DNA from: Geotalea daltonii FRC-32
GTDB lineage: Bacteria > Desulfobacterota > Desulfuromonadia > Geobacterales > Geobacteraceae
Reading direction: 5' to 3'
Assembly: GCF_000022265.1 (NCBI RefSeq)
Contig: NC_011979.1
Coordinates: 1,860,001 to 1,892,000 of the forward strand
DNA length: 32,000 nt
In this document: in pieces, positions 3,201-28,542 of the stretch
Layout: every line of letters begins with the position of its first letter
How positions within the stretch are numbered: the first letter of the stretch is position 1
The notes under the pieces: model-generated
What the model was told of the DNA's origin: nothing
Databases searched by the model: none
What the model saw: the letters and a program-made list of their open reading frames with translations, nothing else
Program-made: the position numbers and the translations under genes

Positions 3201-3980
3201 ATGGCGGTGAAAAACTGGTTTTTTGTCTTTCTGCTGATTTCCTTGCCGGCTGTCTATGTGCAGCAGGCAGTCGCCCAGAAGGAGTCCCACCGGGATTATG
3301 CTTCCATGAAAGTTGTCGAGTGCAACGACTGTCACAAGAATGAGGGGGTCGCACTCAATCACGATGCCGACTGGCTGCGGGGGCACCGGCTGCCGGCCCA
3401 GAAGGGCGCCTCCAACTGCGGGCAGTGCCATGATCAGTCCTATTGTCTTGACTGCCATACGGGGGGAGGCATCAATGCCGATCTTTCAACCCAGAATTAC
3501 CGGCGGGATTATATCCCCAAAAGTCACAAGAGCGACTGGATAGAGATCCATCCCATAAAGGCCCAGGACAATCCCCAGTCCTGCACCCGCTGTCATGACC
3601 AGAAAAACTGCCAGGATTGCCATTCCCGGTACCGGTCCACAGACCTGCAGTTCCAGTCCCACCGGCGCCAGTTCCGGGACATCAAGGTCAGCGATATCGG
3701 CCCGAACCATGCCATCTTCACTACCGCCCAATGTCCCACATGTCACCAGGGGGGGATTCTGCCGAGCCATCAATGGTCATCGGATCATGCCTCGGAGGCG
3801 CGGCGCAATCTGCAGTCCTGCGGTACCTGCCACAGTGACGGCGATGTCTGCATGACCTGCCATAGCGCGCGCACCGGTCTCAAGGTCAATCCCCATCCAC
3901 GGAACTGGAACGGTGTCAAGGGCAACTACAGGGACAAGAGCAGCGGCAGGACCTGCGTCCGCTGCCATGACAGATTTTAA
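3201..3980 (+). CDS. Periplasmic multihaem c-type cytochrome with 9 CXXCH motifs (OmaB-like)
   Basis: SD AAGGGGG precedes the ATG and a signal peptide is present. Motifs: CNDCH, CGQCH, CLDCH, CTRCH, CQDCH, CPTCH, CGTCH, CMTCH and CVRCH in 259 aa. Confidence 0.85.
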   Translation: MAVKNWFFVFLLISLPAVYVQQAVAQKESHRDYASMKVVECNDCHKNEGVALNHDADWLRGHRLPAQKGASNCGQCHDQSYCLDCHTGGGINADLSTQNYRRDYIPKSHKSDWIEIHPIKAQDNPQSCTRCHDQKNCQDCHSRYRSTDLQFQSHRRQFRDIKVSDIGPNHAIFTTAQCPTCHQGGILPSHQWSSDHASEARRNLQSCGTCHSDGDVCMTCHSARTGLKVNPHPRNWNGVKGNYRDKSSGRTCVRCHDRF

Positions 3981-4015
3981 ACAAAGATAAATATACTGGA
4001 AAGGAGGAATCATCA

Positions 4016-6268
4016 ATGGGCAGAAGCGTATCGTTGCAGTTGTTCCTTGCCGTTTTCCTGGTGTCCGGGTTGCTTGGCGGCTGCGGCTCGTCCAAGAAAG
4101 AAGGTGAGCAACAGACTCAGGTGAGTGCCCCAACCAAAGTGGGTTCCGAAAGCTGTACCAACACCTGCCATAGTACCACCAGGGATATTACCGGCAATAT
4201 CATCGCCCAGACCTGGGCAAATACCACCCATACGACCGTGCAGGGTGTCCAGTGCGAGGATTGTCACGGCGGCGGCAGCATGCACTGGGGGGTCGGGCCG
4301 ATGCCGTTCCCCATTCCCCAGGCCGAGCAATGCAGCCAGGCCAGCTGTCATGCCTCTTTCCTTTCGGGCTTCAATCAGACCGCCCATGCCAACACCCACG
4401 CGGAAGGGGCGCCTTTCGGGCCTGACAAGTTTTTCTTCCAGGGAGACCCCGGCAGCGGCCAGGCAAGTCTGAGAACAAGAAACGGGGCTGATATTCAGGA
4501 GGTTACGCCGACCGGTCAGCCTGTGAACAAATCCCAGCACATTGTGGAATGCTCGGTCTGCCATAATCCCAACCAGCGTTTCGTCGCCTACAGTACGAAC
4601 CTTTTCAGGCCCGCCCAGAGGGTCTTCACCAGCAGTGATTCTCAGGACCAGGACGGGGAAAGCAATTTCTTCCAGAGCCGCTACATCAACCCTGCGGTTT
4701 CCTGTGCCGGTTGCCACGATGCCCATCAGCCCCAGCAGATGGTCAAAATCCCCCAGCGTAGCAACCAGGTCGGTTACCCCATCTACCGACGCTACAGCAC
4801 CCCTGAACTGGGCAGAATCCAGGGAACCGTCTTTCAACCAAATGGGGTAGTGCTTACCGGAGTCCCAGTTGCCGGCGCCGCCACCAACAACAATGAAGTC
4901 AGCCCGGAACTACTCTGCGCTGCCTGCCATACGGTCAGCAAATACAAGTTCTCCAACCTTTCCACCCACCAGGATAACGTCTATCCCCAGTGGACCCATT
5001 CGGGACACGGTGAAAGAGAAAAGCCGGCCTGGGCCGAGTTTTCGGCAAACCCTGCAGGATACATCAATCCACTTACAGGACTCGCTTATACTGATCTCGG
5101 CCATGCCACCAGCTATCCCGTCGATATGGCACTCAGGAGTTATGGCGCCACCGCAAGTGCAACGAGCAATCAGGGTAACAACAATTTTGCCTGCTTCAAA
5201 TGCCACAACGGCCTCACCTCAATTGCATACCAGAAAAATATCCAGGGAACACCGGCAGCGCCGGTAGTTTTCGGAGATGCCAGTGCTACCTGCATCACCT
5301 GCCACGATCCCCACCAAAAAGGCACCTTTGCCGGCGGGGCAAATACCACCAGCAACATCCGGGTTCCGGTGGCAATGACCAATTACTCAACTGTCAACGT
5401 CAAGGTCTTCGGCAATGTCTTTCTGGACAACCAGCCGATCCCCCAGAACAATGCCAACGAGACCATCTGCATTTTCTGTCACCAGGGCCGGGAGAGCGGC
5501 TTTACTCTCTACCGCGCCAAGCTGGCTCCGGGTAAATCAGCCGCCGGTTCCTTCTTCAATCCCCATTACCTGGGTACCGCCGCAATGCTGTGGGGAGCCA
5601 ACGGTTACGAATTCAGCGGAAAATCCTACAGTGCCAATGTGGCCCACCAGCAAGCAAACTGTGCCAGCTGCCACATGGATAATGCCACTGAAGACAACAC
5701 CATCGGCGGACATAGCTGGAATCCGAACGTTGCTTCCTGCAATACCTCCAGTTGCCACGGCGGAGGAGTCGGCCCAGCTGTTGCGGCAAAACCGGGCACC
5801 GCCGCACCTGAGGTCAACGCTTACCGGGCTGCCTTCGATACCAGCGATTATGACGGCAGCGGTGCTCTTGAGCCGATAGCAGTTGAAATAAAAGGCCTTC
5901 AGGACAAACTTATCGCCCTCCTTGCCGCCAACGGCATTTTCTACACGGATCTCAAGTATCCCTATTTCTTTGCTGATCCTGCCTTTACCACCAACTACAC
6001 GGCCTGGAACACGGCGACCGGAGGTACAACAGCTTTCAAGGCTGCGTTCAATCTGCAATTCATCATCAAGGGGCTACCATCCGCGGCGACATCTCAAACG
6101 GCTGTGCCCAATGCTTCTGCAGCCGTGCATAACTACAAATACATTATCCAGTTGCTCCGCGATTCATACGAGGAATACAATGCGGTGGCAGCAGCCAAAG
6201 GGGCAACCCTTTCCGGTGTAAGGCCGGCGGGTACAAGACCTGCAACTGTCTATGGTCCGGGTCAGTAA
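4016..6268 (+). CDS. Outer-surface lipoprotein multihaem c-type cytochrome (OmcB-like)
   Basis: SD AAAGGAGG. Lipoprotein signal with lipobox LLGG|C23. There are 8 canonical CXXCH motifs (CEDCH, CSVCH, CAGCH, CAACH, CFKCH, CITCH, CIFCH, CASCH) plus CTNTCH (CX3CH), CSQASCH and CNTSSCH (both CX4CH). At 750 aa, its size and position after the porin and periplasmic cytochrome match the Geobacter omcB arrangement. Confidence 0.85.
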   Translation: MGRSVSLQLFLAVFLVSGLLGGCGSSKKEGEQQTQVSAPTKVGSESCTNTCHSTTRDITGNIIAQTWANTTHTTVQGVQCEDCHGGGSMHWGVGPMPFPIPQAEQCSQASCHASFLSGFNQTAHANTHAEGAPFGPDKFFFQGDPGSGQASLRTRNGADIQEVTPTGQPVNKSQHIVECSVCHNPNQRFVAYSTNLFRPAQRVFTSSDSQDQDGESNFFQSRYINPAVSCAGCHDAHQPQQMVKIPQRSNQVGYPIYRRYSTPELGRIQGTVFQPNGVVLTGVPVAGAATNNNEVSPELLCAACHTVSKYKFSNLSTHQDNVYPQWTHSGHGEREKPAWAEFSANPAGYINPLTGLAYTDLGHATSYPVDMALRSYGATASATSNQGNNNFACFKCHNGLTSIAYQKNIQGTPAAPVVFGDASATCITCHDPHQKGTFAGGANTTSNIRVPVAMTNYSTVNVKVFGNVFLDNQPIPQNNANETICIFCHQGRESGFTLYRAKLAPGKSAAGSFFNPHYLGTAAMLWGANGYEFSGKSYSANVAHQQANCASCHMDNATEDNTIGGHSWNPNVASCNTSSCHGGGVGPAVAAKPGTAAPEVNAYRAAFDTSDYDGSGALEPIAVEIKGLQDKLIALLAANGIFYTDLKYPYFFADPAFTTNYTAWNTATGGTTAFKAAFNLQFIIKGLPSAATSQTAVPNASAAVHNYKYIIQLLRDSYEEYNAVAAAKGATLSGVRPAGTRPATVYGPGQ

Positions 6269-7790: not shown

Positions 7791-8417
7791 ATGGCGCCAT
7801 TTGATATTCTGCGGCTGAATCGGGATGAACTGCCGAGCGAGACCCAGGCCATGGCCCGATTTCTCATCGGCAAAACATTGGTTATGGATCATGATGGAGC
7901 GAGGCTCAGCGGGCGCATTGTCGAAACGGAAGCATATCCCCCCGGAGATGCGGCAGGTCGGGCATTCAGTGGGGAAAGCCGGGCAAACCGTTCCCTGTAT
8001 ATGAATTATGGCCATGCCTTTGTCTATCTCATTTACGGACGTTACCACATGTTGAACGTGGTCAGCGAGCAGCCCGGAATCGGGGCTGCCGTCCTCTTGC
8101 GTTCGCTGGAACCACTGGAAGGCGTCCGGCTCATGGAAGAGCGTCGCGGAACGACCCGGCTTCAAGATCTGGCGCGGGGACCCGGCAGGCTGACGGCAGC
8201 CCTTGGCATCGACAGGCGTCATGACGGTATCGATCTTCTGGATAACCGAAATCTGTGGCTGGGCAGGGAAATAAGGTCTGTGACGCATATGGGCATGAGC
8301 GCCCGCATAGGCTTGACCAGGGAGGTTAATCGGCTTTGGCGGTATTACGAGGTAGGCAGTTCCTTTGTCAGCGGCACTCGGGGTATGAACAGGTTCTTGA
8401 CTGAAATGACATTGTGA
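7791..8417 (+). CDS. mpg: DNA-3-methyladenine (alkylpurine) glycosylase, Mpg/AAG family
   Basis: Motifs: LIGKTLV, GRIVETEAYPPGDAAGRAF, NRSLYMNYGHAFVYLIYGRYHMLNVVSE, AAVLLRSLEP and GPGRLTAALGI. The gene starts 9 nt after the methyltransferase gene. Confidence 0.85.
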   Translation: MAPFDILRLNRDELPSETQAMARFLIGKTLVMDHDGARLSGRIVETEAYPPGDAAGRAFSGESRANRSLYMNYGHAFVYLIYGRYHMLNVVSEQPGIGAAVLLRSLEPLEGVRLMEERRGTTRLQDLARGPGRLTAALGIDRRHDGIDLLDNRNLWLGREIRSVTHMGMSARIGLTREVNRLWRYYEVGSSFVSGTRGMNRFLTEMTL

Positions 8418-8454
8418 GATGATGGGCAACCGGTGCCAACCGGATGACAAACGA

Positions 8455-8494
8455 AAAGCCGCGGATCGGAGGGTTGTGATCCGCGGCTTTTTTA
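8455..8494 (+). terminator. Rho-independent terminator
   Basis: GCCGCGGATC (8458-8467) / GATCCGCGGC (8478-8487) with a 10-nt loop, followed by T6 at 8488-8493. Confidence 0.85.
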
Positions 8495-8737: not shown

Positions 8738-9097
8738 ATGGAAAAACTGAAAGGAGTATCACCGTTGATACGCTCTCTTTACGCCTTGAATGGCATCGTC
8801 GCCGTATTGCTTTATTTGCCGCAGATCAGGACTATTCTCAGGAACAAGGAAGAAGTGGGATCTTTTTCGCTGATAACCTTCGGCGGTTGGTCTGTCGGCT
8901 CGATCATCACCGCCCTTTATGCCTGGACCTTAATCGGGGATCCCATGTTTGCGGCAGTCAGTCTGGCGAACATGCTCGGCTCCGGCACCGTTTTCACCCT
9001 TGTTGCGGGCAGGCGCCTGAAAAACCGCCACCTGCCCGCGCTAACGACAAGGCACGAAACGGATGACGCTGATAGTCTCGCCGAGAACTTCGGCTAA
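8738..9097 (+). CDS. PQ-loop / SemiSWEET-like small three-helix membrane protein
   Basis: There are three hydrophobic helices. A Pro-Gln motif follows helix 1 (LLYLPQIRTILRNK) and then ..WSVGSIITALYAWTLIGDPMF.., as in PQ-loop/SemiSWEET proteins. The start is ambiguous: ATG 8738 lacks an SD, whereas TTG 8765 has AAAGGAG (8749-8755) 9 nt upstream. The last 57 nt overlap the convergent 9041..12460 gene. Confidence 0.45.
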   Translation: MEKLKGVSPLIRSLYALNGIVAVLLYLPQIRTILRNKEEVGSFSLITFGGWSVGSIITALYAWTLIGDPMFAAVSLANMLGSGTVFTLVAGRRLKNRHLPALTTRHETDDADSLAENFG

Positions 9098-12000
9098 AGA
9101 GCGAAGGACATACTCGATCTCTTCCTCGGTATTGTCGTTCCCCAGGGAGAAGCGGACCGAGCAGTGAGCCTGCTGGGGGGTAAGCCCCATGGCGGTCAGG
9201 ACGTGGGATGGGTCCGGATTTCCCGATTTGCAGGCAGATCCGGAGGAAAAGGCGATTCCCTTCCTGTCCATGAGGAGGACCAGCGATTCCCCCCGTATTT
9301 CCGGCAGGGTCATACTGAGGGTGTTGGGGAGCCGCCCGTTTGGTGGCCCGTTGCTTTTTGCCATCGGCAGCAGCGCCCTTATTCCTCTTTCCAGCTTTTC
9401 ACGAAGGGCAGCCAGCCGCTTGGGTCCCTCACCATTCAACCGGCAGAGAGCCAGCTCTACTGCCCGGCCAAAGCCGACAATTCCGGGCACATTCTCAGTG
9501 CCGGCACGCAGCCCCCATTCCTGTCCTCCCCCCTTGACCAGCGGGGCTAACCTCAGATCCTTCCGCACATAAAGCGCCCCGACCCCCTTTGGTCCATGGA
9601 GCTTGTGGGCGGATACCGAAAGCAGATCAATCCCCAATTCAGCCACATCGATGGCTATCTTGCCGAAAGCCTGCACCGCGTCGGTGTGAAAAAGGGCACC
9701 ACAGCCATGGGCAATCTCGGCCAACTCCCTCACCGGCTGGATGGCGCCGGTCTCATTATTGGCGAGCATGATGGACACCAGCAGTGTATCCGGTCGGATG
9801 GCAACGGCCAGAGCTGACGGTTCGACAACTCCGGCCCGGTTTACCGGCAGGATCGTCAGCTCGTATCCGAGTGTCGCCAATGCCCGGCAGGGGACCAGCA
9901 CTGCGGGATGCTCGATGCTGCTGGTGATGATGTGCCGGCGTTCCCCACCTGAAGCCGCTGCCAGACCTTGAATGGCGAGGTTATCCGCTTCTGACCCTCC
10001 ACCGGTAAAGACGATGCGCCGGGCGGTGCAGTTGAGCCCCTGGGCAACGACTCTGCGGGCAGCTTCTATGGCTGTCCTGGCCGCATTGCCAAAACTGTGG
10101 ATGCTTGAGGGATTGCCGCATTGCTCCCCCAGGAAGGGAAGCATTACCTCACGTACCTCAGGGGCAACATGGGTGGTGGCATTGTGGTCCAGGTAGACCG
10201 CCTGCCGGGATTCCCTTTGAACAGTGAGAGGCTCGTATGCCGGTATTTCTTCAGCCTTGTCTTCTGTTTCAATACCTTGATTCCTTTTAATAGATCGGCT
10301 GCCATCGGCCAGTTTCATTACCCGGCAGAGCAGGGTTTTATATATGGGGAAGCCGGAGATGGGGTCGAATCGGCCGATGTCCGTAAGTTCGTTGACGTTG
10401 CATTGCTGCCATTCTGCCGGTCCCAGCGGACCGCCTCCCCCCATGGCGGCGTCAATGGTGCCGCGCATCATGTGGTCGGAAAGCCTTGCCGTAAACAGAG
10501 CGCGGCCACGGGGCGTTTCCACCCAGACCTGTTCACCTTCCCCTATGCCCGATTCCATTGCTTCCCCTCTGTTCATCATCACCGGCGGACTGTCATGATG
10601 TTCGGCAAGTGACCGGACCCCATGGTGCTGGCTGCGGAAATCGAATCTGGTCCTGCCACCGGAGTTGAAAACCAGGGGATATTCCCGTGCCAGCTCCGGG
10701 GCGGCCAGCGGCCCTTCTGCAGGCTCGGTATAGACCGGCAGAGGATCATACCCATGCTCGGCCAGGATTGAGGAGGCAATCTCGAACTTGCCGCTGGGGG
10801 TGTTGAAGCCGGGGCGGCCGTCGGCCCGAAGCAGCCCCTTTTCCCACTTCCGGTACTGCATCATGGCTGTCGGCAATCGCACTTCTCCCCCGGCTTTCCT
10901 TACCTCATCCAAAGAAAAGCCGCTGCCGTCCAGGGCATGGCGCAGGAGTTCCTCTTCCGATCTTGGATAAAGGTGCCCGTAGCCCAGGCGCCCGGCCAGT
11001 TCTGCCAGGATGAGGAAATCATTGCGCGCCTCCCCCTGCGGCTCCACAAGGCGTTCACGGATCTTGAACATCGGGCCGAAACGCATGTATGAAGTGATCT
11101 CGTAGTAGGTGGCAGCGGGCAGGACGATGTCCGCATAGGCGGAGTCGGCAGTGTGGTAGCGGTTAATGCTGACCATGAAATCCAGGGCATCCAGGGTCTT
11201 GCGCCATATTTGCGGTTGCGGCCAGGCGGTGATGATCGACCCGCCGAGGACGGTCAGGGCGCGGATCGGGTATGGTTTGTCATGCAGGACCGCATCGGGA
11301 AGGGCAATGGCGTGGGATTCACCACGATATGCGCTATAGACCGGGAAGCGGTCCCGCCCCAGAGCCTTCTTCATATCTGGATTGGGGATGAGGCGTGAGC
11401 GATTCTGGGGAAAGATATTTTCCTTCATGCGGAAGACCAGTCCTCCCGGCACGTCCAGTTGACCGGCCAGAGCCCACAACGTAAAGACGCCGCGGATGGC
11501 CTGGACGCCGCTGTCGGAATATTCCAGCCCGGTGTACATGACCGGCACGGAACCCCGAGCTGCCACCACTTCCCGTGCCAGCTCACGCACCGTTTCTGCC
11601 GGTACCCCGGTTATGCTTTCCACCACCTCCGGCCGGTAGTGCTGGACCAGCTGCTTCAATTCCTCGAATCCCACCGTCCAGTTGGCGGCGAATTTTTCGT
11701 CATAAAGCTCTTCCTCAACCAGTACGGCAATCATCCCCAGGGCCAGCGCTCCATCGGTACCGGACCGGATGGGGACCCACCTGGCGCCGGTCTCACGGGC
11801 GGTCTCACCCAGGCGCGGGTCAATGGCGATGATCCGTGCGCCACGCTCCCGCGCCTTCAGGATCTGCAGGTGATTCAGCGGCGGCGAGTCGGTGGCGGGA
11901 TTGGCCCCCCAGATGACGATCAGCTCTGCCTGCTCGATGTCCGCCTCCATTGTCACCAGCATCTCCCCCATGGTCACATGGGGAGCGATCATGGCAAAGG

Positions 12001-12460
12001 AGACGTAGCAGAGGGCGCCGACACCAAGGGTGTTGGGGGACCCGAAGGGGAAAAGGACGCTGGAGGCGGAGGACACAGCCACATCAGCCGGCTGGAAGAC
12101 ATCGCACAGTGCCATGTCGAAGCTGCCCCGGCCGGTATAAAAGGCTACCGCTTCCGGTCCCGAACTATTTTTTATTTCCTGAAAACGGGAGACGATAGTA
12201 TTGAAGGCTTCATCCCAGGAAATCCGTTCAAATTGATAGGTTCCCTTGGGGCCAGTGCGGCGCAGGGGATGAAGAAGCCGGTCCGGATCGTGGACGATTT
12301 GGGGAGAATGCCGGCCGATATGGCAGATCATCCCCAGGGGGTGCCCATTATGGGGCTCTACCTTTAGTAACCGGCCTTCCCTGATGGTGGCCGTTATGAA
12401 ACAGCCGGCAGGACAGATGCCGCACAGGCCATGGCGGATTTCGATCCTGTCCTCCGTCAC
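9041..12460 (-). CDS. Metallopterin-dependent ergothioneine synthase (MES)-like bifunctional protein: an acetylene-hydratase-related Mo/W-bis-pyranopterin domain fused to a NifS/IscS-type cysteine desulfurase
   Basis: Single uninterrupted 1139-aa ORF. The N-terminal part has the MopB Fe-S motif C13-x2-C16-x3-C20...C46, ISWDEAF, IDPR, GTDGAL and LYDEKFAANWTVGFEELK, and continues with typical MopB domains to about aa 715. The C-terminal part (aa 755-1139, nt 9044-10198) has YLDHNATT, SSIEHPAV, the PLP-lysine motif SVSAHKLHGPKG and the catalytic loop SSGSAC. The GTG start overlaps the upstream gene's stop codon (TAGTG). Confidence 0.75.
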   Translation of the reverse strand: MTEDRIEIRHGLCGICPAGCFITATIREGRLLKVEPHNGHPLGMICHIGRHSPQIVHDPDRLLHPLRRTGPKGTYQFERISWDEAFNTIVSRFQEIKNSSGPEAVAFYTGRGSFDMALCDVFQPADVAVSSASSVLFPFGSPNTLGVGALCYVSFAMIAPHVTMGEMLVTMEADIEQAELIVIWGANPATDSPPLNHLQILKARERGARIIAIDPRLGETARETGARWVPIRSGTDGALALGMIAVLVEEELYDEKFAANWTVGFEELKQLVQHYRPEVVESITGVPAETVRELAREVVAARGSVPVMYTGLEYSDSGVQAIRGVFTLWALAGQLDVPGGLVFRMKENIFPQNRSRLIPNPDMKKALGRDRFPVYSAYRGESHAIALPDAVLHDKPYPIRALTVLGGSIITAWPQPQIWRKTLDALDFMVSINRYHTADSAYADIVLPAATYYEITSYMRFGPMFKIRERLVEPQGEARNDFLILAELAGRLGYGHLYPRSEEELLRHALDGSGFSLDEVRKAGGEVRLPTAMMQYRKWEKGLLRADGRPGFNTPSGKFEIASSILAEHGYDPLPVYTEPAEGPLAAPELAREYPLVFNSGGRTRFDFRSQHHGVRSLAEHHDSPPVMMNRGEAMESGIGEGEQVWVETPRGRALFTARLSDHMMRGTIDAAMGGGGPLGPAEWQQCNVNELTDIGRFDPISGFPIYKTLLCRVMKLADGSRSIKRNQGIETEDKAEEIPAYEPLTVQRESRQAVYLDHNATTHVAPEVREVMLPFLGEQCGNPSSIHSFGNAARTAIEAARRVVAQGLNCTARRIVFTGGGSEADNLAIQGLAAASGGERRHIITSSIEHPAVLVPCRALATLGYELTILPVNRAGVVEPSALAVAIRPDTLLVSIMLANNETGAIQPVRELAEIAHGCGALFHTDAVQAFGKIAIDVAELGIDLLSVSAHKLHGPKGVGALYVRKDLRLAPLVKGGGQEWGLRAGTENVPGIVGFGRAVELALCRLNGEGPKRLAALREKLERGIRALLPMAKSNGPPNGRLPNTLSMTLPEIRGESLVLLMDRKGIAFSSGSACKSGNPDPSHVLTAMGLTPQQAHCSVRFSLGNDNTEEEIEYVLRSLAEVLGETISVIRFVPCR

Positions 12461-13527
12461 TATGAAGTACCTCCGGAGACTGCCGGGGAGAAGCCGTTCC
12501 GGCGTAACAGGAGAAGGGCGAACCAGCTACGTTCGTCAGTAAAGATCTCCTCGGCGGTAAAGCCATAGCCCTCCAGGAAAGGGAGGAATGTCTCAAGACG
12601 GAATTTCCGGCTGATCTCAGTATTTATGGCTTCACCTTCGTCAATGATAACATGCTGCCCTAGTGGCGCGATGTGGATCGCCTGGCGTTGGCTGAAGCGG
12701 GCACAGATATCCACCTGCTCCTTTGCCTCGTTGTAAACCGCCACATGCTGGACGGCAGACGGGTCTATGGAACTTCCCAGTTCCCGGTTCATGCGGATGA
12801 AAAGATTCCGGGTGAATTCCTGGGTTACGCCGGCAGCATCGTTGTAGGCGGCTTCAATGGTCTGACGCTCCTTGACCAGGTCGATGCCCAGCAGGAAGAA
12901 GTCGTCCCGGCAAAGGGACAGGGCAAGGTCATGGAGAAACAGGGACATCTCTTCGCCGGCGAAGTTGCCGATGCTGCTGCCAAGGAAGAGCACAGTCACC
13001 GGCGATATCTCGCGCAAGAGGGGGAAGGCACCCCTGTAGTCGCTGTTTATGCCGAGGACTTGTGTTGCCGGATGGCTGGCGGTTATGTTGCGGGAAGCTT
13101 CTCGCAGGGCGGCCTCGCTCACGTCGATCGGGATATATCTCACCGACTGTGCCTGGGCAAGCCAGGCCCGCAGCAGATAGTCGGTCTTTGTCGAATTGCC
13201 CGAACCGAGCTCCGCAAGTGTTGTGGCGCCGCATATTTTCCTGATGAAGCGTGCTTTGGTTGCGAGAATTTCAGCTTCAGTGCGGGTCAGATAATATTCG
13301 GGTTGACGGGTGATAAGGTCGAACAGCTCGCTGCCGCGGGCATCATAGAGAAAACGGCATTGGAGCCTGCGGGGCATGGAGCTGAGGCCGGCGGCGGTGG
13401 CGGAGGCAAAATCGATCAGCTGATCGGCCTCCGTCGAGTGCTGTCGAATGATCAGGCCGGAACGGTTCAGTGCTTTGCGAAAAGACTTGCGGACCGGCCA
13501 GGGGGCCGACGGAAAAGTTGCTTGCAT
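12460..13527 (-). CDS. egtD: EgtD-type SAM-dependent L-histidine N-alpha-methyltransferase (hercynine synthase)
   Basis: Motifs: FLYDARGSELFDLITRQPEYYLTRTEAEIL, ELGSGNSTKTDYLL, LGSSIGNF and TEISRKF, all hallmark EgtD-family blocks. I place the start at ATG 13527 because SD AAGGGAG lies 5-6 nt upstream. The longer track ORF (to 13743) would run into the divergent gene at 13628. Confidence 0.8.
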   Translation of the reverse strand: MQATFPSAPWPVRKSFRKALNRSGLIIRQHSTEADQLIDFASATAAGLSSMPRRLQCRFLYDARGSELFDLITRQPEYYLTRTEAEILATKARFIRKICGATTLAELGSGNSTKTDYLLRAWLAQAQSVRYIPIDVSEAALREASRNITASHPATQVLGINSDYRGAFPLLREISPVTVLFLGSSIGNFAGEEMSLFLHDLALSLCRDDFFLLGIDLVKERQTIEAAYNDAAGVTQEFTRNLFIRMNRELGSSIDPSAVQHVAVYNEAKEQVDICARFSQRQAIHIAPLGQHVIIDEGEAINTEISRKFRLETFLPFLEGYGFTAEEIFTDERSWFALLLLRRNGFSPAVSGGTS

Positions 13528-13627
13528 ATGACTCCCTTTGGACAGCAGGGGCAAAATGGGCAATAATATTAAAAAGTATAAATAAAGTCGGGGGAGAGTC
13601 AAATCAGGCTGAAACTCTGGAGGTAAC

Positions 13628-14134
13628 ATGAAGGGTAACGACCTGTTGCGAAAGGAATTACTGGCCCTGCTGTCCGGTGGGGAAGCCCATATGGATTTTG
13701 CCGATGTTGTCGCCCGGTTCCCCATGGAGCACATTAACAGCAAGGCACCGCATACACCCTATTCCTGCTGGCATTTCGTCGAACACCTGCGCATTGCCCA
13801 GTGGGACATCCTGCAGTTCATGATCGATCCCGATCATGTGTCGCCGGACTATCCCGAAGGTTACCGTCCGGCTCCTGACAAAAAAGCCGATGAAAAGGAT
13901 TGGTATGTGAGTGTGGAGGGGGTACTCTCAGACCTGGAGAACCTGAAGGGGATAGTCAGTAACCCGGAGACCGACTTTTTTGCCCCCATCCCCCATGCCA
14001 AAAGCTACACAATATTTCGGGAGATACTGCTGGTGGCGGACCACAACGCCTACCACATAGGCGAGCTGGCCCTGCTGCGTCAGGTACTGGGGATATGGCC
14101 GAAGGGGTTCGAATACCTTACCGGCAGGGCCTGA
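13628..14134 (+). CDS. DinB-superfamily (DinB_2-like four-helix bundle) protein
   Basis: SD GGAGG precedes the ATG. His-containing blocks HFVEHLRIAQWDIL and ADHNAYHIGELALLR are typical of DinB/YfiT-like metal-binding proteins. 168 aa. Confidence 0.6.
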   Translation: MKGNDLLRKELLALLSGGEAHMDFADVVARFPMEHINSKAPHTPYSCWHFVEHLRIAQWDILQFMIDPDHVSPDYPEGYRPAPDKKADEKDWYVSVEGVLSDLENLKGIVSNPETDFFAPIPHAKSYTIFREILLVADHNAYHIGELALLRQVLGIWPKGFEYLTGRA

Positions 14135-20471: not shown

Positions 20472-21242
20472 TTATTTCCCCTCCTGAAGGCGGCCCAACA
20501 GCCTGAGCAGGCCGTCAAGTATGGTGAACGGGTGGGGAGGGCAGCCAGGGATATAAAGATCCACAGGTAGCAGCCCATCCACACCATTGTGCACCTCCGG
20601 CGAGTCCATGAAAGGCCCTCCGTTGATGGCACAGGCACCGCTGGCGATGACGATTTTCGGTGCCGGCACTGCCTCATAGGTCTTCAGCAGCGCTTCCCGC
20701 ATATTTTCAGTAACCGGACCGGTCACCAGGATGCCGTCGGCATGGCGCGGCGATGCCACGAACTGGATGCCGAATCGTCCCAGGTCCCAAGCCACCGTTG
20801 ACAGAACGTTCACATCTGCCTCACAGGCATTGCACCCCCCTGCACATACCTCACGCAGTTTCAGAGACCGGCCGAAGAGGGAAAGCATTTTTGCTTCCAG
20901 CGCTTCGGTTAATTTCCGCTCTCCATCCGAAGATACGATCAAATCCCGGCGAGTTCTTGCCGCCAGCTTCTCATCGCGGCTGAACCTGATGGCTCCATGG
21001 GGGCACGACAGGGTGCACTCCGGACAGAACAGGCATTTGCCCATATCCAGTGCCAGACAGTTTTCATTGCGGCTGATGGCGCCGAATGGACAGGCATTGG
21101 CACACAGACGGCAGTCGGCAGGGCAGGCCTCGGCGTTGAGGACAGGGTAACCGCGGAAAAGCTCAGGCAATTGTGCCGGTTCATCGGGATATTTCAGGGT
21201 GCGGTGTTTCTGGTGGATGCGGGCGAGTATGGTTTTAAGCAT
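20472..21242 (-). CDS. Fused 2x[4Fe-4S] ferredoxin (HycF/NuoI-like) and NuoB/HycG-like small subunit of an Ehr/group-4-hydrogenase-type complex
   Basis: The N-terminal part has CPADCRLCANACP and CLFCPECTLSCP. The C-terminal part has GGCNAC, SPRHADGILVTG, ASGACAINGG and IPGCPP, the four NuoB-type cluster cysteines. Confidence 0.8.
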   Translation of the reverse strand: MLKTILARIHQKHRTLKYPDEPAQLPELFRGYPVLNAEACPADCRLCANACPFGAISRNENCLALDMGKCLFCPECTLSCPHGAIRFSRDEKLAARTRRDLIVSSDGERKLTEALEAKMLSLFGRSLKLREVCAGGCNACEADVNVLSTVAWDLGRFGIQFVASPRHADGILVTGPVTENMREALLKTYEAVPAPKIVIASGACAINGGPFMDSPEVHNGVDGLLPVDLYIPGCPPHPFTILDGLLRLLGRLQEGK

Positions 21243-21284
21243 AATATCCTCAGCTAAAAATATCGTCGGCAGATCGTTCGTACG

Positions 21285-22808
21285 TTAAAGGTCGAATCCG
21301 CAGTAGGACAGGTTGAAGCTCTTATTGCACAGGGGAAAATCCGATATCTGCTGGCCGCGCAGGGCCATGGCCAGTCCCGGCCAGTTATGGAAAGATGGAT
21401 CGACAATCTTGTAACGACTGAACCTGCCCGATTCGTCGGTCAGCGCCACATGACAGACCTCTCCTCGCCAGCCTTCGGTCAAGGCCACGGCAAGCCTTTC
21501 TCCGGCCGGCGCCCCCATATGGGTAGCATGGCGACCGCTGGGCAACTGACGCAGCTGTTCCTCCAGGAACTCCAGTGATTTTTCCGCTTCCAGCCATCTG
21601 ACCAGAGTCCGCCCGTAAACGTCTCCGCTTCTGGCGGTAACCACGGGAATCTGGCTCATCTGATAGATGCCGAAAGGGAAATCCTGGCGTGTATCGGTGG
21701 CAATGCCACAGGCTCTTGCTGCTGGGCCGGTGAGGGCGAGCTCTTTGGCCGTTTCCCTGCTGACGGTACCAGTGGCTTCAAGGCGGGCAAGCACCGAAGG
21801 GGTCGCCCAGATAAGATCGACGGCATTGGTCAGATCTTTTCGCGCTGATGCCAGTCGCTGCAGGAGTTCGTCCGACTGTTTCCGGCTGCAGTCGAAGCCG
21901 GTACCGCCGGGGCGGATCAGCCCCCGGCTGAAGCGACTGCCGCAAAGGATGGCGCTCATATTGAGGAAATCGCCCCTGATACGGCCACAGTAGGACGAGG
22001 TGGGAAGGTAGCCGGTGTCGCCGGCGATGGCCCCCAGGTCCCCGGTATGATTTGCCAGTCGTTCCAGTTCCAGGCCGATACCCCGTAGTACCTCTGCCTT
22101 GGCCGGCAGATGAATATTGGCCAGAGACTCCAGGATCATGCAGTGGGCCCATGCGTGGCCGACGGTGGTGTCTCCGGCTATGGTTTCCATCTCATAGAGG
22201 GTTCGTGGTTTCGGTCCGCCGATCAATGCCGCTTCGATGCCCCGGTGCTGGTATCCCAGGGCTATTTCCAGGTGGAAAACCTCTTCGCCGTGGCATTGGA
22301 AACGGAAATGTCCCGGCTCTATCACTCCGGCATGGACCGGCCCGACTGCAACTTCGTGGACTTCCTCTCCCTCGACCCGGTAGAAATCGGTGACACCGGG
22401 GAGGATGGCGCTCCTGTCGGCTCGTCCCCAGGCATCGTAACCGGGCCTGAAGGATTGGTGGAAACGGAGCGGTTTGAACCAGGGGTGTCCTTCCGGTACT
22501 ATCCCGAATTGCTCGGCGATTTCACGCTCGAAAAGATTGGCCTGTGGACAGTAAGGGGTAATGGAGGGAAAATTGCCGCTGCATTTGCTGCGCATCACTC
22601 CGATCAAGCCGTCGGCTCTGGCTGTTAGCACAACATAGAGATTAAGCTCGGCAGGGTTTCCTTCACCGAAAAAAGCGGAGATTTTCCAGCCGTGGTCTGC
22701 GGCGTTTATAATGGCCTGGAGAAATTCTTCCAGTCTCACCTCGGGGACTGCGGCAAGTGGTAAGGACTCGCCGTTGTAAAACGTCTTCATAAAGGAGGTG
22801 TCTGTCAT
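21285..22808 (-). CDS. NuoC-NuoD / HycE-like 'large subunit' lacking the [NiFe]-binding cysteines (Ehr-type)
   Basis: ATG 22808 overlaps the upstream stop codon (ATGA), with GGAGG 7 nt upstream. Conserved blocks are VGPVHAGVIEPGHFRF and LGYQHRGIE. The CxxCxxxH site reads AGDTTVGH, and the C-terminal [DE][PL]CxxCx[DE][RL] site reads NLSYCGFDL. Confidence 0.8.
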   Translation of the reverse strand: MTDTSFMKTFYNGESLPLAAVPEVRLEEFLQAIINAADHGWKISAFFGEGNPAELNLYVVLTARADGLIGVMRSKCSGNFPSITPYCPQANLFEREIAEQFGIVPEGHPWFKPLRFHQSFRPGYDAWGRADRSAILPGVTDFYRVEGEEVHEVAVGPVHAGVIEPGHFRFQCHGEEVFHLEIALGYQHRGIEAALIGGPKPRTLYEMETIAGDTTVGHAWAHCMILESLANIHLPAKAEVLRGIGLELERLANHTGDLGAIAGDTGYLPTSSYCGRIRGDFLNMSAILCGSRFSRGLIRPGGTGFDCSRKQSDELLQRLASARKDLTNAVDLIWATPSVLARLEATGTVSRETAKELALTGPAARACGIATDTRQDFPFGIYQMSQIPVVTARSGDVYGRTLVRWLEAEKSLEFLEEQLRQLPSGRHATHMGAPAGERLAVALTEGWRGEVCHVALTDESGRFSRYKIVDPSFHNWPGLAMALRGQQISDFPLCNKSFNLSYCGFDL

Positions 22809-24238
22809 GGCCGTACCTCCAAAAGCTGGGCCGATTGCTGCAGGAGTGCTTTCAGCGGGGCCGGCAGCCATAGCCCCAGTACCAGAATGATGGCCATCAG
22901 GAACAGGGGCGGCCCGACCGTAAGGAAGCTGTCACGATAGGAGGTCCTGGTGACGGCCGGTGTCATTCTGCCCATTACCACCGGCAGCACGGAGGAGGCC
23001 ATACCGAGGAAGATGATGGCCAGGAAGAGCAGGAACAGGGCTCCGACCAGGGGTTGTTTTTGGCTGAAGATGCTGCTGACGATGGTGAATTCACTGAGAA
23101 ACGGGCTGAAGGGGGGGGAGCCGGTGATGGCGATGAATCCTGCCAAAAAGAGCGCCCCCGACCATGGGACCCGGTGCAACGCTCCTTTCACCTGTTCACA
23201 ATTCTTGCTGCCATAGGCCCGGTGAATATTCCCCGAGGTGAGGAACAGGACCCCTTTGGTCAGGCCGTTGTTGATGACGTGGAACAGCGCCCCGAAGAGG
23301 GCATCGCCACCTATCCCCAAGGCTATGGCCAAAATTCCCACGTGCTCCACGCTGGAATAGGCGAGCATTCTCTTGAAATCGGCCTGCCGCACGACAAACA
23401 CGGCGGCGAAGGCCATTGAAACAAGACCCAGGACAATCATGGCATTGTGATAGAAGGCGGTTTCGCTGGCCCGCATGCAAACCTGGTAAACCCTGATGAT
23501 GGCCAGGAAGGCGCAGTTAACCAGTCCCCCTGCCAGCAACGCTCCCACCAGGCCTGGAGCCTCTCCGTAAGCGTCCGGCTTCCAGGTGTGAAGCGGCGCC
23601 AGACCCATCTTCGTGCCGAAGCCTACCAGAAGGAAGATGAAGGCAGCATTTAGCCAGGCCGGTGAAAGCTGACCCGCTGAAGCGATCAGTGGTTCCAGCA
23701 GGAGCGTGGCTTCCTTTTGGGCGACAACGGTAGAGTAGGCAAGAAAGAAGAGGCCGAGCAGGGCCAGGGCGATGCCCACCGAACAGATGAGCATGTATTT
23801 CCAGGTGGCTTCAAGGGACCGGGCATTGCGGTTGAAGTAGATGAGAGGCGCCATGGTGAGGGTGGTGGCTTCCAGGGCAACCCAGAGTAGCCCCAGATGA
23901 TGGGAAATGGTTACCAGGGTCATGGCGGACAGGCAGACGAGAAGCCCCATGCACAGGACGCGGTTTGATCGTTCCTGGCGGTGGGAGAGGTAGCCCACCG
24001 CATAGACGGCGCAGGTAAGGAAAAGAAGGGTCTCGACGCCGAGAAACAGTTTGCCGATCGGGTCCAGCACGAGCCATCCCCCCGGAGACGGGGCGGGGGG
24101 GGCAATGAATGCATCGACGGTCAGGCTCAGATGCAGAGCGGCAAAAAGGGGAAGCACCAGCGGCCGGTGGCGGTTGGAAGGTATGAACCAGGCCAGTAGT
24201 GCGCCGACCAGTGGTAGCAGAACCAGGCTGTAAAACAT
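22805..24238 (-). CDS. NuoM/N / HyfF-like antiporter-type membrane subunit
   Basis: 477-aa polytopic protein with LEATWKY, GFGTKMGLAPLHTWKPDAYGEAP and LAYSSVEH blocks. SD AAGGAG. Confidence 0.8.
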   Translation of the reverse strand: MFYSLVLLPLVGALLAWFIPSNRHRPLVLPLFAALHLSLTVDAFIAPPAPSPGGWLVLDPIGKLFLGVETLLFLTCAVYAVGYLSHRQERSNRVLCMGLLVCLSAMTLVTISHHLGLLWVALEATTLTMAPLIYFNRNARSLEATWKYMLICSVGIALALLGLFFLAYSTVVAQKEATLLLEPLIASAGQLSPAWLNAAFIFLLVGFGTKMGLAPLHTWKPDAYGEAPGLVGALLAGGLVNCAFLAIIRVYQVCMRASETAFYHNAMIVLGLVSMAFAAVFVVRQADFKRMLAYSSVEHVGILAIALGIGGDALFGALFHVINNGLTKGVLFLTSGNIHRAYGSKNCEQVKGALHRVPWSGALFLAGFIAITGSPPFSPFLSEFTIVSSIFSQKQPLVGALFLLFLAIIFLGMASSVLPVVMGRMTPAVTRTSYRDSFLTVGPPLFLMAIILVLGLWLPAPLKALLQQSAQLLEVRP

Positions 24239-24242
24239 CTAC

Positions 24243-24881
24243 TTACTCCTTCAGTGCGGTCAGCCGCGATGTATCTATGGAAGAAAACTCGTTGCTGATG
24301 TGATTGATGACAATGCCCATGACGAAGATGCCGACAAGCAGGTCGAGAAGAACCCCTGCCTCTACCATTACCGGCATGGCTGTCGACAGGAGCAGGCCGA
24401 AGATGAAGATGCCGTTTTCAAGGATCAGGTAGCCAATAACCTGGCTTATGGCTTTACGTCTGGTGGTCAGGGCGAGAAAACCGGTCATCATGGTGGCGAT
24501 GGCCGCAGGGACAAAGAGAAGCCCCTGGTGCTCAGGCGCCAGCGGCAGTTTGGCAGCGAAGACAAAGGCAAGGGCGGTGGTTATGGCACCGATGATCAGT
24601 GTCGAAACATAGCCGATGAAGGGCTCCACCTCCCGCTTGATCTGGATCTTGTTCATGGCCCCGAAAAGAAGCCAGGGGATCATCACCCCTTTGGCCAGGA
24701 TGATGCCGACGGTTATGGCTACCAGGTGCCAGGAAAAATGATGAATTATGCCGGGAAGTAGTCCCAGGACAACTCCTTGTACGGCAACGGCGCGGATGGC
24801 GATTGCCATTCGGCTTGAGCCGAGCACGAGGAAATTGATCAGCATGACGAACACCAGCAATTGATCGGCAAATATATTCAT
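24243..24881 (-). CDS. HyfE-like small membrane subunit
   Basis: Roughly 7 hydrophobic helices, positioned between the NuoH-like and NuoN-like genes as in hyf operons. I prefer ATG 24881 (GAGG 5 nt upstream) over the track's GTG 24887. Confidence 0.65.
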   Translation of the reverse strand: MNIFADQLLVFVMLINFLVLGSSRMAIAIRAVAVQGVVLGLLPGIIHHFSWHLVAITVGIILAKGVMIPWLLFGAMNKIQIKREVEPFIGYVSTLIIGAITTALAFVFAAKLPLAPEHQGLLFVPAAIATMMTGFLALTTRRKAISQVIGYLILENGIFIFGLLLSTAMPVMVEAGVLLDLLVGIFVMGIVINHISNEFSSIDTSRLTALKE

Positions 24882-24883
24882 GG

Positions 24884-25792
24884 TCACCTCAGGATCAACA
24901 GCATTGAAAAGCCGGAAAGAATGCAGGCTGCAACCAGCAGCTGCGGAACACGGATAAGTCGAAGCCTGGCCATTATTGATTCCACGACCCCGATGGCCAC
25001 TGCCAGCCCGAGCATGAGCAGGATGAAAATGCCCCAGTCGAGGATGGCGTTGCCGCTTTTCAGGGGCAGGGCGATATTGATGAAGAACGCCCCCATGACG
25101 AACAGTTTCATGGCCGCACCGTAGAGGATATAGGCAAAGGCGGGTCCGCTGTGATCAAGGACCATCACTTCGTGGATCATGGTCAGTTCCAGGTGGGTAT
25201 TGGGATCATCGAACGGAATACGGCAGTTTTCCGCAAGAAGCACTATGAACAGCCCGCCGACGAGAAGAAGGAGTGCGGCGCCGGAGCTGAACCACATGGA
25301 GACCGACAGGTTGGACATCATTGGGGAAAGGGAAAGGGTGCCGCTCATCCTGCTCAGGGTCATCAGGGCAAAAAACAGCGTCGGTTCGGCGAGGCAGGCA
25401 AAGGTCGCTTCCCGGGCCGCGCCCATCCCCTCGAAGCTTGAACCGGTGTCAAGGGCCGCCAGGGTGGTGAAAAACCGTCCGAGGGCAAAGAGATAGGCAA
25501 AGAGTATCATGTCCCCGGCAAAGGCGATGGGAGCCTGATGGTTGCCCAGGGGGATCAACAAGGCTGCAACCAGAGTAGCGGCCAGGGTGATCACCGGCCC
25601 AGCGGTAAAGACCCAGGTGGTGGTGTCGCTGATTACCATACCCTTGCGGATCAGTTTTGCCAGGTCGTAGTAGTGTTGAAAATATGACGGGCCGATCCTG
25701 CCGGCAAAGGCGGCCTTGGTTTTTCCGATCACCCCGAGGAGGAGCGGCGGCATGAGGATGATGAGAAGTGCATGGATCAATATATCGGTCAT
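24884..25792 (-). CDS. NuoH / HycD / HyfC-like membrane subunit
   Basis: The N-terminal part (GVIGKTKAAFAGRIGPSYFQHYYDLAKLIRKG) matches the HycD/NuoH pattern. 302-aa polytopic protein with SD AGAGG. Confidence 0.8.
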   Translation of the reverse strand: MTDILIHALLIILMPPLLLGVIGKTKAAFAGRIGPSYFQHYYDLAKLIRKGMVISDTTTWVFTAGPVITLAATLVAALLIPLGNHQAPIAFAGDMILFAYLFALGRFFTTLAALDTGSSFEGMGAAREATFACLAEPTLFFALMTLSRMSGTLSLSPMMSNLSVSMWFSSGAALLLLVGGLFIVLLAENCRIPFDDPNTHLELTMIHEVMVLDHSGPAFAYILYGAAMKLFVMGAFFINIALPLKSGNAILDWGIFILLMLGLAVAIGVVESIMARLRLIRVPQLLVAACILSGFSMLLILR

Positions 25793-25826
25793 GATGAAAC
25801 CTCTGTCCGGCTAGGCTGGCACTCGT

Positions 25827-27852: not shown

Positions 27853-28542
27853 TCAGCGGGCGTTTCCACCTGCCAGTTCGCCTTCTATCAATTTCACAGC
27901 GGCGATAATCTCGCTCTGTGGCCCCTGACGCTGCAGAACTGCCTTAAAACGCTGATCTCGCAGGATATACGCCAGTTTGGACAGAAGGTGCAGGTGAACC
28001 TTTACCGTGGGGCTGATGAGAAGAAAAATGGTATCTACGGGTTTATTATCAATGGCTTTGAAATCAATGGGATTGGTGAGGAAGCAGAGGGTGATCATGG
28101 CGGCATTCACGTGGAGCAGGATGGGATTTCTCACATGGGGGATGGCGATGCCGTCGCCGATGGCTGTGGTGCCAAGGGCTTCTCTAGCCATGAGCACCTG
28201 GAGGATGTAATCCCGATCTGCCTGGGGAGGGAACTTGAGGAGAGAGATAATGTTTTTCAGCACCTCGTCCTTGGTCTTTCCCTGAATATCATGATGGGTT
28301 CCCCCCGCTTTCAGGACCTGGGAAAGATGCGGCAGATGTATATCAGGTTCTTCGGGTTCGGCGAATATTTCGGGGGAAAGGTTCAGGCGCTGTTCTGTGG
28401 CCAATTCAAGAAGGTCCACCCGGTTCAGGCGGTATTCTTCATTGACCGTGCATGCTGAAATCTGGTCCTTTTTTATCCATCGCAAAACGGTTTTTTCCGG
28501 GACATGAAGCAGTTTCGCCGCTTGGGAAACGGTCAGGAGCAT
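27853..28542 (-). CDS. HTH (excisionase/MerR-like) plus PTS EIIA type-2 (PtsN-like) domain regulator
   Basis: The N-terminal part is LLTVSQAAKLLHVPEKTVLRWIKKDQI. The C-terminal EIIA-2 domain has LMAREALGTTAIGDGIAIPHVR, retaining the phosphorylatable His. It ends 22 nt upstream of the NuoL-like gene on the same strand. Confidence 0.75.
   Translation of the reverse strand: MLLTVSQAAKLLHVPEKTVLRWIKKDQISACTVNEEYRLNRVDLLELATEQRLNLSPEIFAEPEEPDIHLPHLSQVLKAGGTHHDIQGKTKDEVLKNIISLLKFPPQADRDYILQVLMAREALGTTAIGDGIAIPHVRNPILLHVNAAMITLCFLTNPIDFKAIDNKPVDTIFLLISPTVKVHLHLLSKLAYILRDQRFKAVLQRQGPQSEIIAAVKLIEGELAGGNAR

Follow-up and report, generated by a model that had tools for sequence, protein, structure and literature searches.

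A putative egtD-MES operon for oxygen-independent ergothioneine biosynthesis in Geotalea daltonii FRC-32

A 32,000-nucleotide stretch of the Geotalea daltonii FRC-32 genome (contig NC_011979.1, positions 1,860,001 to 1,892,000; referred to here as the window, with positions counted from its first letter) encodes an EgtD-type histidine methyltransferase followed directly by a homologue of MES, the metallopterin-dependent ergothioneine synthase whose discovery was reported by Beliaeva and Seebeck (JACS Au 2022, PMC9516567). We read this locus as a two-gene egtD-MES operon for oxygen-independent ergothioneine biosynthesis and put the probability of this reading, which is built on sequence comparison, at about 0.85. 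Gene structure, domains, residue conservation, organism identity and synteny were read directly from the data, and the chemistry and sulfur relay proposed below are borrowed from the published work on the Caldithrix abyssi enzyme, CaMES (PMC9516567). Exact-sequence look-up assigned both proteins to Geotalea (formerly Geobacter) daltonii FRC-32, a member of the Geobacteraceae in the Desulfuromonadia, with EgtD matching ACM20050.1, WP_012646779.1 and UniProt B9M6J0 and the MES homologue matching ACM20049.1, WP_012646778.1 and UniProt B9M6I9.

Gene structure of the locus and its two proteins

The two genes are encoded on the minus strand (Table 1). The frame containing egtD in the list of open reading frames (ORFs) spans 12460..13743(-), and the annotated start within it is the ATG at 13527, preceded by GGGAG. 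On the minus strand the junction reads ...GGAGGtacttcaTAGTGacg, and the TAG of egtD and the GTG of MES have one G in common, giving a 1-nt overlap, with a Shine-Dalgarno GGAGG 9 nt 5' of the GTG (GGAGG-tacttcata-GTG). This GTG is the earliest canonical start past the upstream in-frame stop, and the next one is a GTG at residue 34. The MES start is effectively forced, since the invariant Cys13 must lie downstream of it and no other canonical start is found before Cys13. On a second contig, which encodes an identical protein, an independent gene call reproduced the 1-nt overlap. The two genes are probably translationally coupled through the overlapping TAGTG and the GGAGG before it, and both are probably transcribed from one promoter within the 100-bp divergent intergenic region upstream of egtD, where a candidate sigma-70-type site matches the consensus at 10 of 12 positions. 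A scan of the egtD/MES boundary gave no convincing terminator between the genes, and the egtD leader contained no molybdenum cofactor (Moco) or S-adenosylmethionine (SAM) riboswitch at E values up to 1.

The product of the upstream gene matches Pfam Methyltransf_33 (PF10017) at 1.3e-94 and passes the curated cutoff of the NCBIfam equivalog TIGR03438, with 304.5 bits against 290.9. Its translation contains the motifs YDARGSELFDLITRQPEYYLTRTE and ELGSGNSTKT, and it aligns without gaps over ∼298 residues with the crystal-structure sequences of Mycobacterium smegmatis EgtD (7.5e-57). In this alignment the pocket is identical at Y39, F47, Y56, N166, Y206, T213, E282 and S284, which make up the whole histidine-binding set of eight, and also at G161 and F216. 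Two substitutions, both conservative, were seen against the M. smegmatis protein: T163 is replaced by Ser and M252 by Ile. Vit et al. reportedly found in 2015 that E282 together with M252 sets the specificity of EgtD for histidine versus tryptophan. An Ile at the M252 position is also present in the Abyssubacteria methyltransferase (Figure S1, PMC9516567). According to the roles given for the pocket residues in PMC8593015, T213 and E282 contact the imidazole. The assignment of the 355-amino-acid (aa) protein as an L-histidine N-alpha-trimethyltransferase, which would convert histidine and SAM into hercynine (trimethylhistidine, TMH), is therefore supported by its sequence.

The downstream gene encodes, in one 1139-aa ORF, a metallopterin module of the DMSO-reductase family with a predicted bis(molybdopterin guanine dinucleotide) (bis-MGD) cofactor and a full-length class-V aminotransferase/NifS-like domain. 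The Pfam matches Molybdopterin (2.6e-38) and Molydop_binding (1.6e-15) span residues ∼10-709, with Molybdop_Fe4S4 matching weakly, and Aminotran_5 (4.6e-81) spans residues 755-1118; the NifS and IscS models match the protein at 1e-146 to 1e-107. The best solved relative of the N-terminal part is acetylene hydratase 2e7z (7.2e-72, residues 9-670), and the C-terminal part matches cysteine desulfurases of the Protein Data Bank (PDB) with values down to 2.4e-109 over residues 751-1129. The best of these matches to the C-terminal module form a recent series of 406-aa entries named "cysteine desulfurase" (9wep, 9wer, 9wew, 9wf8, 9wfb, 9wfe and 9wfy), which score from 2.4e-109 to 5.5e-103 and rank ahead of the classical NifS/IscS entries.

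We recovered the CaMES reference (1136 aa) from a Caldithrix abyssi contig and aligned it globally to the 1139-aa window protein. The overall identity is 61.7%, with 65.9% in the metallopterin module (CaMES residues 1-718), 57.7% in the desulfurase and ∼11% in the 28-residue linker that joins them. All nine residues named in PMC9516567 are kept in the Geotalea protein, and in a 22-sequence alignment of MES homologues (A1), used for residue conservation, every one of them is invariant except C46, which is conserved in 90% or more of the sequences. Mutation of CaMES at C153, K952, C1074 or C1135 in each case abolished ergothioneine production in Escherichia coli (PMC9516567).

By analogy with CaMES, the Geotalea enzyme would add sulfur to hercynine at C2 of the imidazole, with L-cysteine as the sulfur source. 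Its C-terminal domain, dependent on pyridoxal 5'-phosphate (PLP), would take the cysteine sulfur as a persulfide on Cys1077, and the sulfur would then be relayed through the C-terminal Cys1138 to a Mo/W-bis-MGD centre ligated by Cys151 and placed beside the N-terminal Fe4S4 cluster. The hercynine imidazole would attack the resulting metal-sulfido species, and ergothioneine would be released. In the published work, sulfur transfer by MES required a single polypeptide, and the metallopterin module was found to swap sulfur reversibly between ergothioneine and hercynine (PMC9516567).

When all plausible ORFs of the window were scanned against Pfam, neither an FGE-sulfatase domain of the EgtB kind nor a rhodanese domain of the EanB kind was found. 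The discovery paper counts 55 genomes without EgtB or EanB in which MES is encoded together with a histidine methyltransferase (PMC9516567). An earlier note on this DNA, made from its letters, had proposed an EgtD-type methyltransferase and a MES-like fusion arranged as an operon at 9041-13527 with TAGTG at 12458-12462, had seen no EgtB or EanB in the window and had guessed at a metal-reducing Desulfuromonadales-type host. The ORF list and the junction letters bear out its coordinates and quoted motifs, with only the strand left unstated; the TIGR03438 score and the histidine pocket agree with its view of the methyltransferase, as do the Fe4S4/bis-MGD/NifS-like architecture and the nine residues with its view of the fusion. 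Its operon arrangement fits the overlap, the internal ribosome-binding site and the lack of a credible terminator between the genes, its statement on EgtB and EanB is matched by the Pfam scans, and the host is indeed a metal reducer of the Geobacteraceae.

Table 1. Features of the egtD-MES locus and its surroundings, in window positions, with the CaMES counterparts of the conserved residues
Feature	Position	Strand	Remarks
egtD	12460..13527	(-)	355 aa; ATG start at 13527, TAG stop 12462-12460
MES homologue	9041..12460	(-)	1139 aa; GTG start at 12460 (12460-12458), stop 9043-9041
Gene junction	12458..12474	(-)	GGAGG (12474-12470), 9-nt spacer, TAGTG (12462-12458); read from the sequence
GGGAG preceding the egtD ATG	13536-13532	(-)	
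Candidate sigma-70-type promoter	13575..13602	(-)	TTGACT-16 nt-TATACT; ends 48 nt 5' of the egtD ATG
Metallopterin (bis-MGD, Mo or W) module	10304..12460	(-)	N-terminal, residues ∼1-719
Fe4S4 cysteines C13, C16, C20, C46	codons 12424-12323	(-)	N-terminal module; CaMES C14, C17, C21, C48
Predicted metal ligand Cys151	codon 12010-12008	(-)	Aligned to CaMES C153; context GVGALCYVSFA identical
PLP-dependent cysteine desulfurase module	9044..10213	(-)	C-terminal, residues ∼750-1139
PLP lysine K953	codon 9604-9602	(-)	Desulfurase module; CaMES K952
Putative persulfide Cys1077	codon 9232-9230	(-)	Desulfurase module; CaMES C1074
Cys1100	codon 9163-9161	(-)	Desulfurase module; CaMES C1097
Putative C-terminal relay Cys1138	codon 9049-9047	(-)	Desulfurase module; CaMES C1135
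DinB-family protein Geob_1693	13628-14134	(+)	168 aa; divergent from egtD; Pfam DinB_2 weak (E 0.004)
PQ-loop (SemiSWEET-like) membrane protein	8738-9097	(+)	Convergent; overlaps the MES 3' end by 57 nt
Promoter-like site of the riboswitch	8635-8608	(-)	TTTACA-16-TATAGT
c-di-GMP-I riboswitch aptamer (RF01051)	8595-8511	(-)	Rfam 52.5 bits, gathering score 35
Methylpurine-DNA glycosylase (MPG) gene	7791-8417		

Distribution, annotation and competing explanations

In a pattern scan across species-representative genomes, at least 510 stretches proved to encode a relative of the fusion, and the best 80 loci (L001-L080) were kept. These span the Geobacteraceae, Desulfomonilaceae, Gemmatimonadota, Acidobacteriota, Actinomycetota, Scalindua, Nitrospirae, Methanosarcinales and others. 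In 68 of the 80, egtD is adjacent to MES on the same strand, either upstream (42 loci) or downstream (26 loci); it lies on the opposite strand in one locus and was not found in 11, six of which have an incomplete flank. For the loci with egtD upstream, the distance to the start of MES could be inferred in 41, and in 31 of these it lies between -20 and +20 nt. Tight coupling of egtD and MES is thus typical of the family, and the exact TAGTG form is not. A survey of egtD-MES co-occurrence had been suggested in the earlier note, and the pairing it looked for holds widely.

The order of the two genes appears to track lineage: egtD precedes MES in the Geobacteraceae, Gemmatimonadota, Acidobacteriota and Scalindua, and follows it in the Desulfomonilaceae, Actinomycetota/Thermoleophilia, Nitrospirae and Methanosarcinales. 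Close orthologues with 71-97% identity are present in Geotalea, Geomonas, Citrifermentans, Pelotalea and Geomesophilobacter, and the persistence of such close orthologues across genera suggests retention by selection. Horizontal transfer of the cassette was considered and rejected because its GC content (0.57-0.61) is not distinctive against the 0.49-0.61 found elsewhere in the window.

The fusion is named "IscS subfamily cysteine desulfurase" in RefSeq, and its homologues at JGI are named "cysteine desulfurase NifS". Among the NCBIfam models, only the IscS-subfamily NF002806 reaches its cutoff (309.7 bits against 304), with a match confined to residues 755-1128, and the RefSeq name describes no more than the C-terminal third of the protein. 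A bis-MGD oxotungsten-binding oxidoreductase fusion was already noted in the name first given in GenBank. NCBIfam release 20 contains no MES model, and this, together with the RefSeq name, means that automated annotation overlooks a route to ergothioneine found widely among anaerobes.

The prediction itself is not new. The MES family, its pairing with egtD and B9M6I9 itself were all published in 2022: Table S1 of PMC9516567 lists B9M6I9 of Geobacter daltonii FRC-32 among the MES homologues with all catalytic residues conserved, and it also includes Geobacter pelophilus, Geobacter sp. SVR and Geobacter sp. M21. The earlier note had held that ergothioneine was not a recognised part of the redox physiology of this group; as a claim to novelty this fails for the prediction and survives only in the narrow sense that our literature search turned up no experiment reporting ergothioneine in Geobacter. 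The locus therefore carries little weight as a discovery, and its value lies in the annotation gap and in a practical experiment, G. daltonii being culturable. What is at stake is whether a strict Fe(III)- and U(VI)-reducing anaerobe makes ergothioneine and what purpose the compound would serve without oxygen, the latter a question raised explicitly by the discovery paper (PMC9516567).

Several observations weigh against reading the locus as an ergothioneine operon. A literature search found no report of hercynine or ergothioneine in any member of the Geobacteraceae and no mention of the locus tags Geob_1690 to Geob_1693, and Geobacter and ergothioneine were found mentioned together only once, in a generic thiol list. 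MES has yet to be purified in full length, and its mechanism is a proposal (PMC9516567). CaMES, AbMES, EaMES and hvMES, at least one of them archaeal, all turned trimethylhistidine into ergothioneine in E. coli, but two of these four homologues were low-yielding, AbMES reaching 0.4 µM (PMC9516567), and therefore membership of the family by sequence is no guarantee of high activity. A PDB search gave no structure of a full-length MES homologue. The promoter upstream of egtD is a consensus match only, of a kind that occurs four times in the scanned region against 2.5 expected by chance. A terminator directly after MES was searched for and not found; the nearest strong hairpin past the gene, at 8453-8492, belongs to a riboswitch unit and to the end of the MPG gene.

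Part of the evidence can also be turned toward other explanations. The fusion might be a general cysteine desulfurase, a cofactor-sulfurating enzyme or a metallopterin sulfurtransferase acting on a heterocycle other than hercynine, with egtD beside it incidentally. The RefSeq name, the passing of NF002806 alone and the lack of a dedicated MES model in NCBIfam all speak for a desulfurase, and the authors of the discovery paper themselves speculated that related Mo enzymes may sulfurise other heterocycles (PMC9516567). We nevertheless consider this very unlikely, as a desulfurase would leave out the 720-residue metallopterin module, which shares 66% identity with the CaMES module, and would not call for the conserved metal-ligand cysteine or the MES-specific relay cysteine in the terminal ...PCR motif (CaMES C1135). 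The adjacency of egtD in 68 of 80 genomes, across many phyla and in two gene orders, is also hard to accept as a coincidence. The methyltransferase, in turn, could be an EasF-like Methyltransf_33 paralogue that forms a betaine from another amino acid, such as tryptophan or tyrosine, and the product of the locus would then not be ergothioneine. Non-histidine enzymes do exist in this family and the EasF model matches the protein at 150 bits, but this is well short of the EasF cutoff of 205.55 whereas the EgtD equivalog passes its own, and with T213, E282, N166, Y206, S284 and Y56 all conserved we regard a paralogue as the least credible of the explanations considered here.

The cassette might also be intact and yet not be a working source of ergothioneine, because it is silent, because its MES is poorly active, because hercynine is itself what the cell uses or because the enzyme exchanges sulfur (or selenium) on imported ergothioneine. 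The literature search returned neither expression nor metabolite data, and the 0.4 µM of AbMES and the reversible exchange catalysed by the metallopterin module would both be compatible with such a role. Both ORFs are intact, however, with good start signals and with every checked residue conserved, and the 71-97% identical orthologues persist in related genera, so we hold this explanation to be as improbable as an incidental desulfurase. An egtD-MES operon for oxygen-independent ergothioneine biosynthesis remains the reading that we prefer.

Neighbouring genes and an orphan riboswitch

Geob_1693, the DinB-family gene divergent from egtD, encodes neither an FGE-sulfatase nor a sulfoxide-synthase domain. 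Homologues with 61-71% identity flank the cassette in two Geomonas loci (L003 and L004), in a metagenome-assembled genome (MAG) of the Geobacteraceae (L059) and in a Desulfomonile MAG (L062). The gene stands beside the cassette in three arrangements, seen in the Geobacteraceae, in the Desulfomonile MAG and in a fragment (L084) in which the C-terminus of EgtD abuts a DinB homologue. By tblastn and phmmer, it is present at 4 of the 80 MES loci and absent from 76. A metagenome scan for the homologue returned five loci, one of them from the same organism and one a fragment with the EgtD C-terminus beside it, and all four of the homologues sampled on long contigs had unrelated neighbours. Given the 4 of 80 loci and the four unrelated contexts, the DinB protein was rejected as a general third component of the cassette, and it remains a lineage-specific lead.

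The convergent PQ-loop gene was also found by an independent gene call (110 aa), and its position beside MES is conserved, among the 80 loci, only in two Geomonas loci. One could imagine that the Geobacteraceae make ergothioneine via MES and that Geotalea and Geomonas have a larger module, in which Geob_1693 would be an ergothioneine-dependent transferase or another ergothioneine-handling enzyme and the PQ-loop protein a transporter of hercynine or ergothioneine. As a transferase, Geob_1693 would parallel the DinB/YfiT-type S-transferases of mycothiol and bacillithiol. This larger module is allowed by the evidence and not favoured by it, and we rate it as unlikely.

Two further kinds of neighbour recur among the 80 loci. 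A fused OpuAC substrate-binding domain-permease stands with an ABC ATPase beside the cassette in six loci (L033, L035, L044, L066, L067 and L076) from the Acidobacteriota, Deltaproteobacteria, Scalindua and others. We take this arrangement to resemble the architecture of the ergothioneine transporter EgtUV, and by that analogy it suggests that uptake or export of ergothioneine may be coupled to its biosynthesis in some lineages. ORFs of ∼250-330 aa adjoin the cassette in another set of loci (L017, L025, L026, L035, L077 and L080) from several unrelated lineages; the member in L026 matches Pfam DUF5996 at 2.6e-66, and the one in L077 has no Pfam match.

A cyclic di-GMP (c-di-GMP) riboswitch of class I is found on the same strand as MES, 446 nt past its stop codon. 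The unpaired model position 11 of its aptamer is a G, which presumably marks the c-di-GMP class rather than the cyclic GMP-AMP (cGAMP) class. Past the aptamer, the strong hairpin at 8492-8453 is followed by TTTTCGTTTGT and looks like the terminator of the riboswitch. No credible ORF follows on its strand in the window, making it an orphan, and from the layout of the letters its transcription would run antisense into the genes for methylpurine-DNA glycosylase and an O-methyltransferase. Seven related MES loci do not have this riboswitch.

Other content of the window, at 3201-6268 (+), 20472-27830 (-) and 27853-28542 (-), is typical of the Geobacteraceae. Away from the cassette, the window encodes two multihaem c-type cytochromes with MtrC/MtrF-like domains, a complex-I/Ech-Mbh-like membrane module (Oxidored_q6, a fused 30/49-kDa subunit, two Proton_antipo_M and NADHdh) and an HTH_17-PTS EIIA-2 fusion protein.

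Comparison with characterised systems

CaMES is the closest characterised counterpart of the Geotalea fusion. Both proteins have the same three-part layout, in which a variable linker joins an Fe4S4 and bis-MGD module to a NifS-like desulfurase, and both come from anaerobes and have egtD as a neighbour. The hosts differ in that Caldithrix belongs to the Calditrichota and Geotalea to the Geobacteraceae. In the 6 kb downstream of MES at the Caldithrix locus (L068), no egtD was seen, and the end of the contig truncates the other flank.

The closest solved structures, one for each half of MES, are the tungsten enzyme acetylene hydratase (PDB 2E7Z) and the NifS/IscS desulfurases. In contrast to MES, these are separate proteins with a single function each, in which the two modules are not combined and which are without the C-terminal ...PCR relay cysteine. 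The O2-dependent sulfoxide synthases EgtB/Egt1 and the anaerobic rhodanese-type EanB serve the same step as MES, the formation of the C-S bond at C2 of hercynine, and the EanB route is likewise oxygen-independent; both differ from MES in having unrelated folds and chemistry.

For the methyltransferase, the comparison is with EgtD of M. smegmatis and Mycobacterium tuberculosis (PDB 4PIM/4PIO/4UY5-7 and 7SCF), with which the Geotalea protein has the residues of the histidine and SAM sites in common and from which it differs by an N-terminal extension of ∼22 residues. The two also differ in the company they keep: the mycobacterial enzyme works alongside EgtA, EgtB, EgtC and EgtE, whereas the predicted partner of the Geotalea EgtD is MES.

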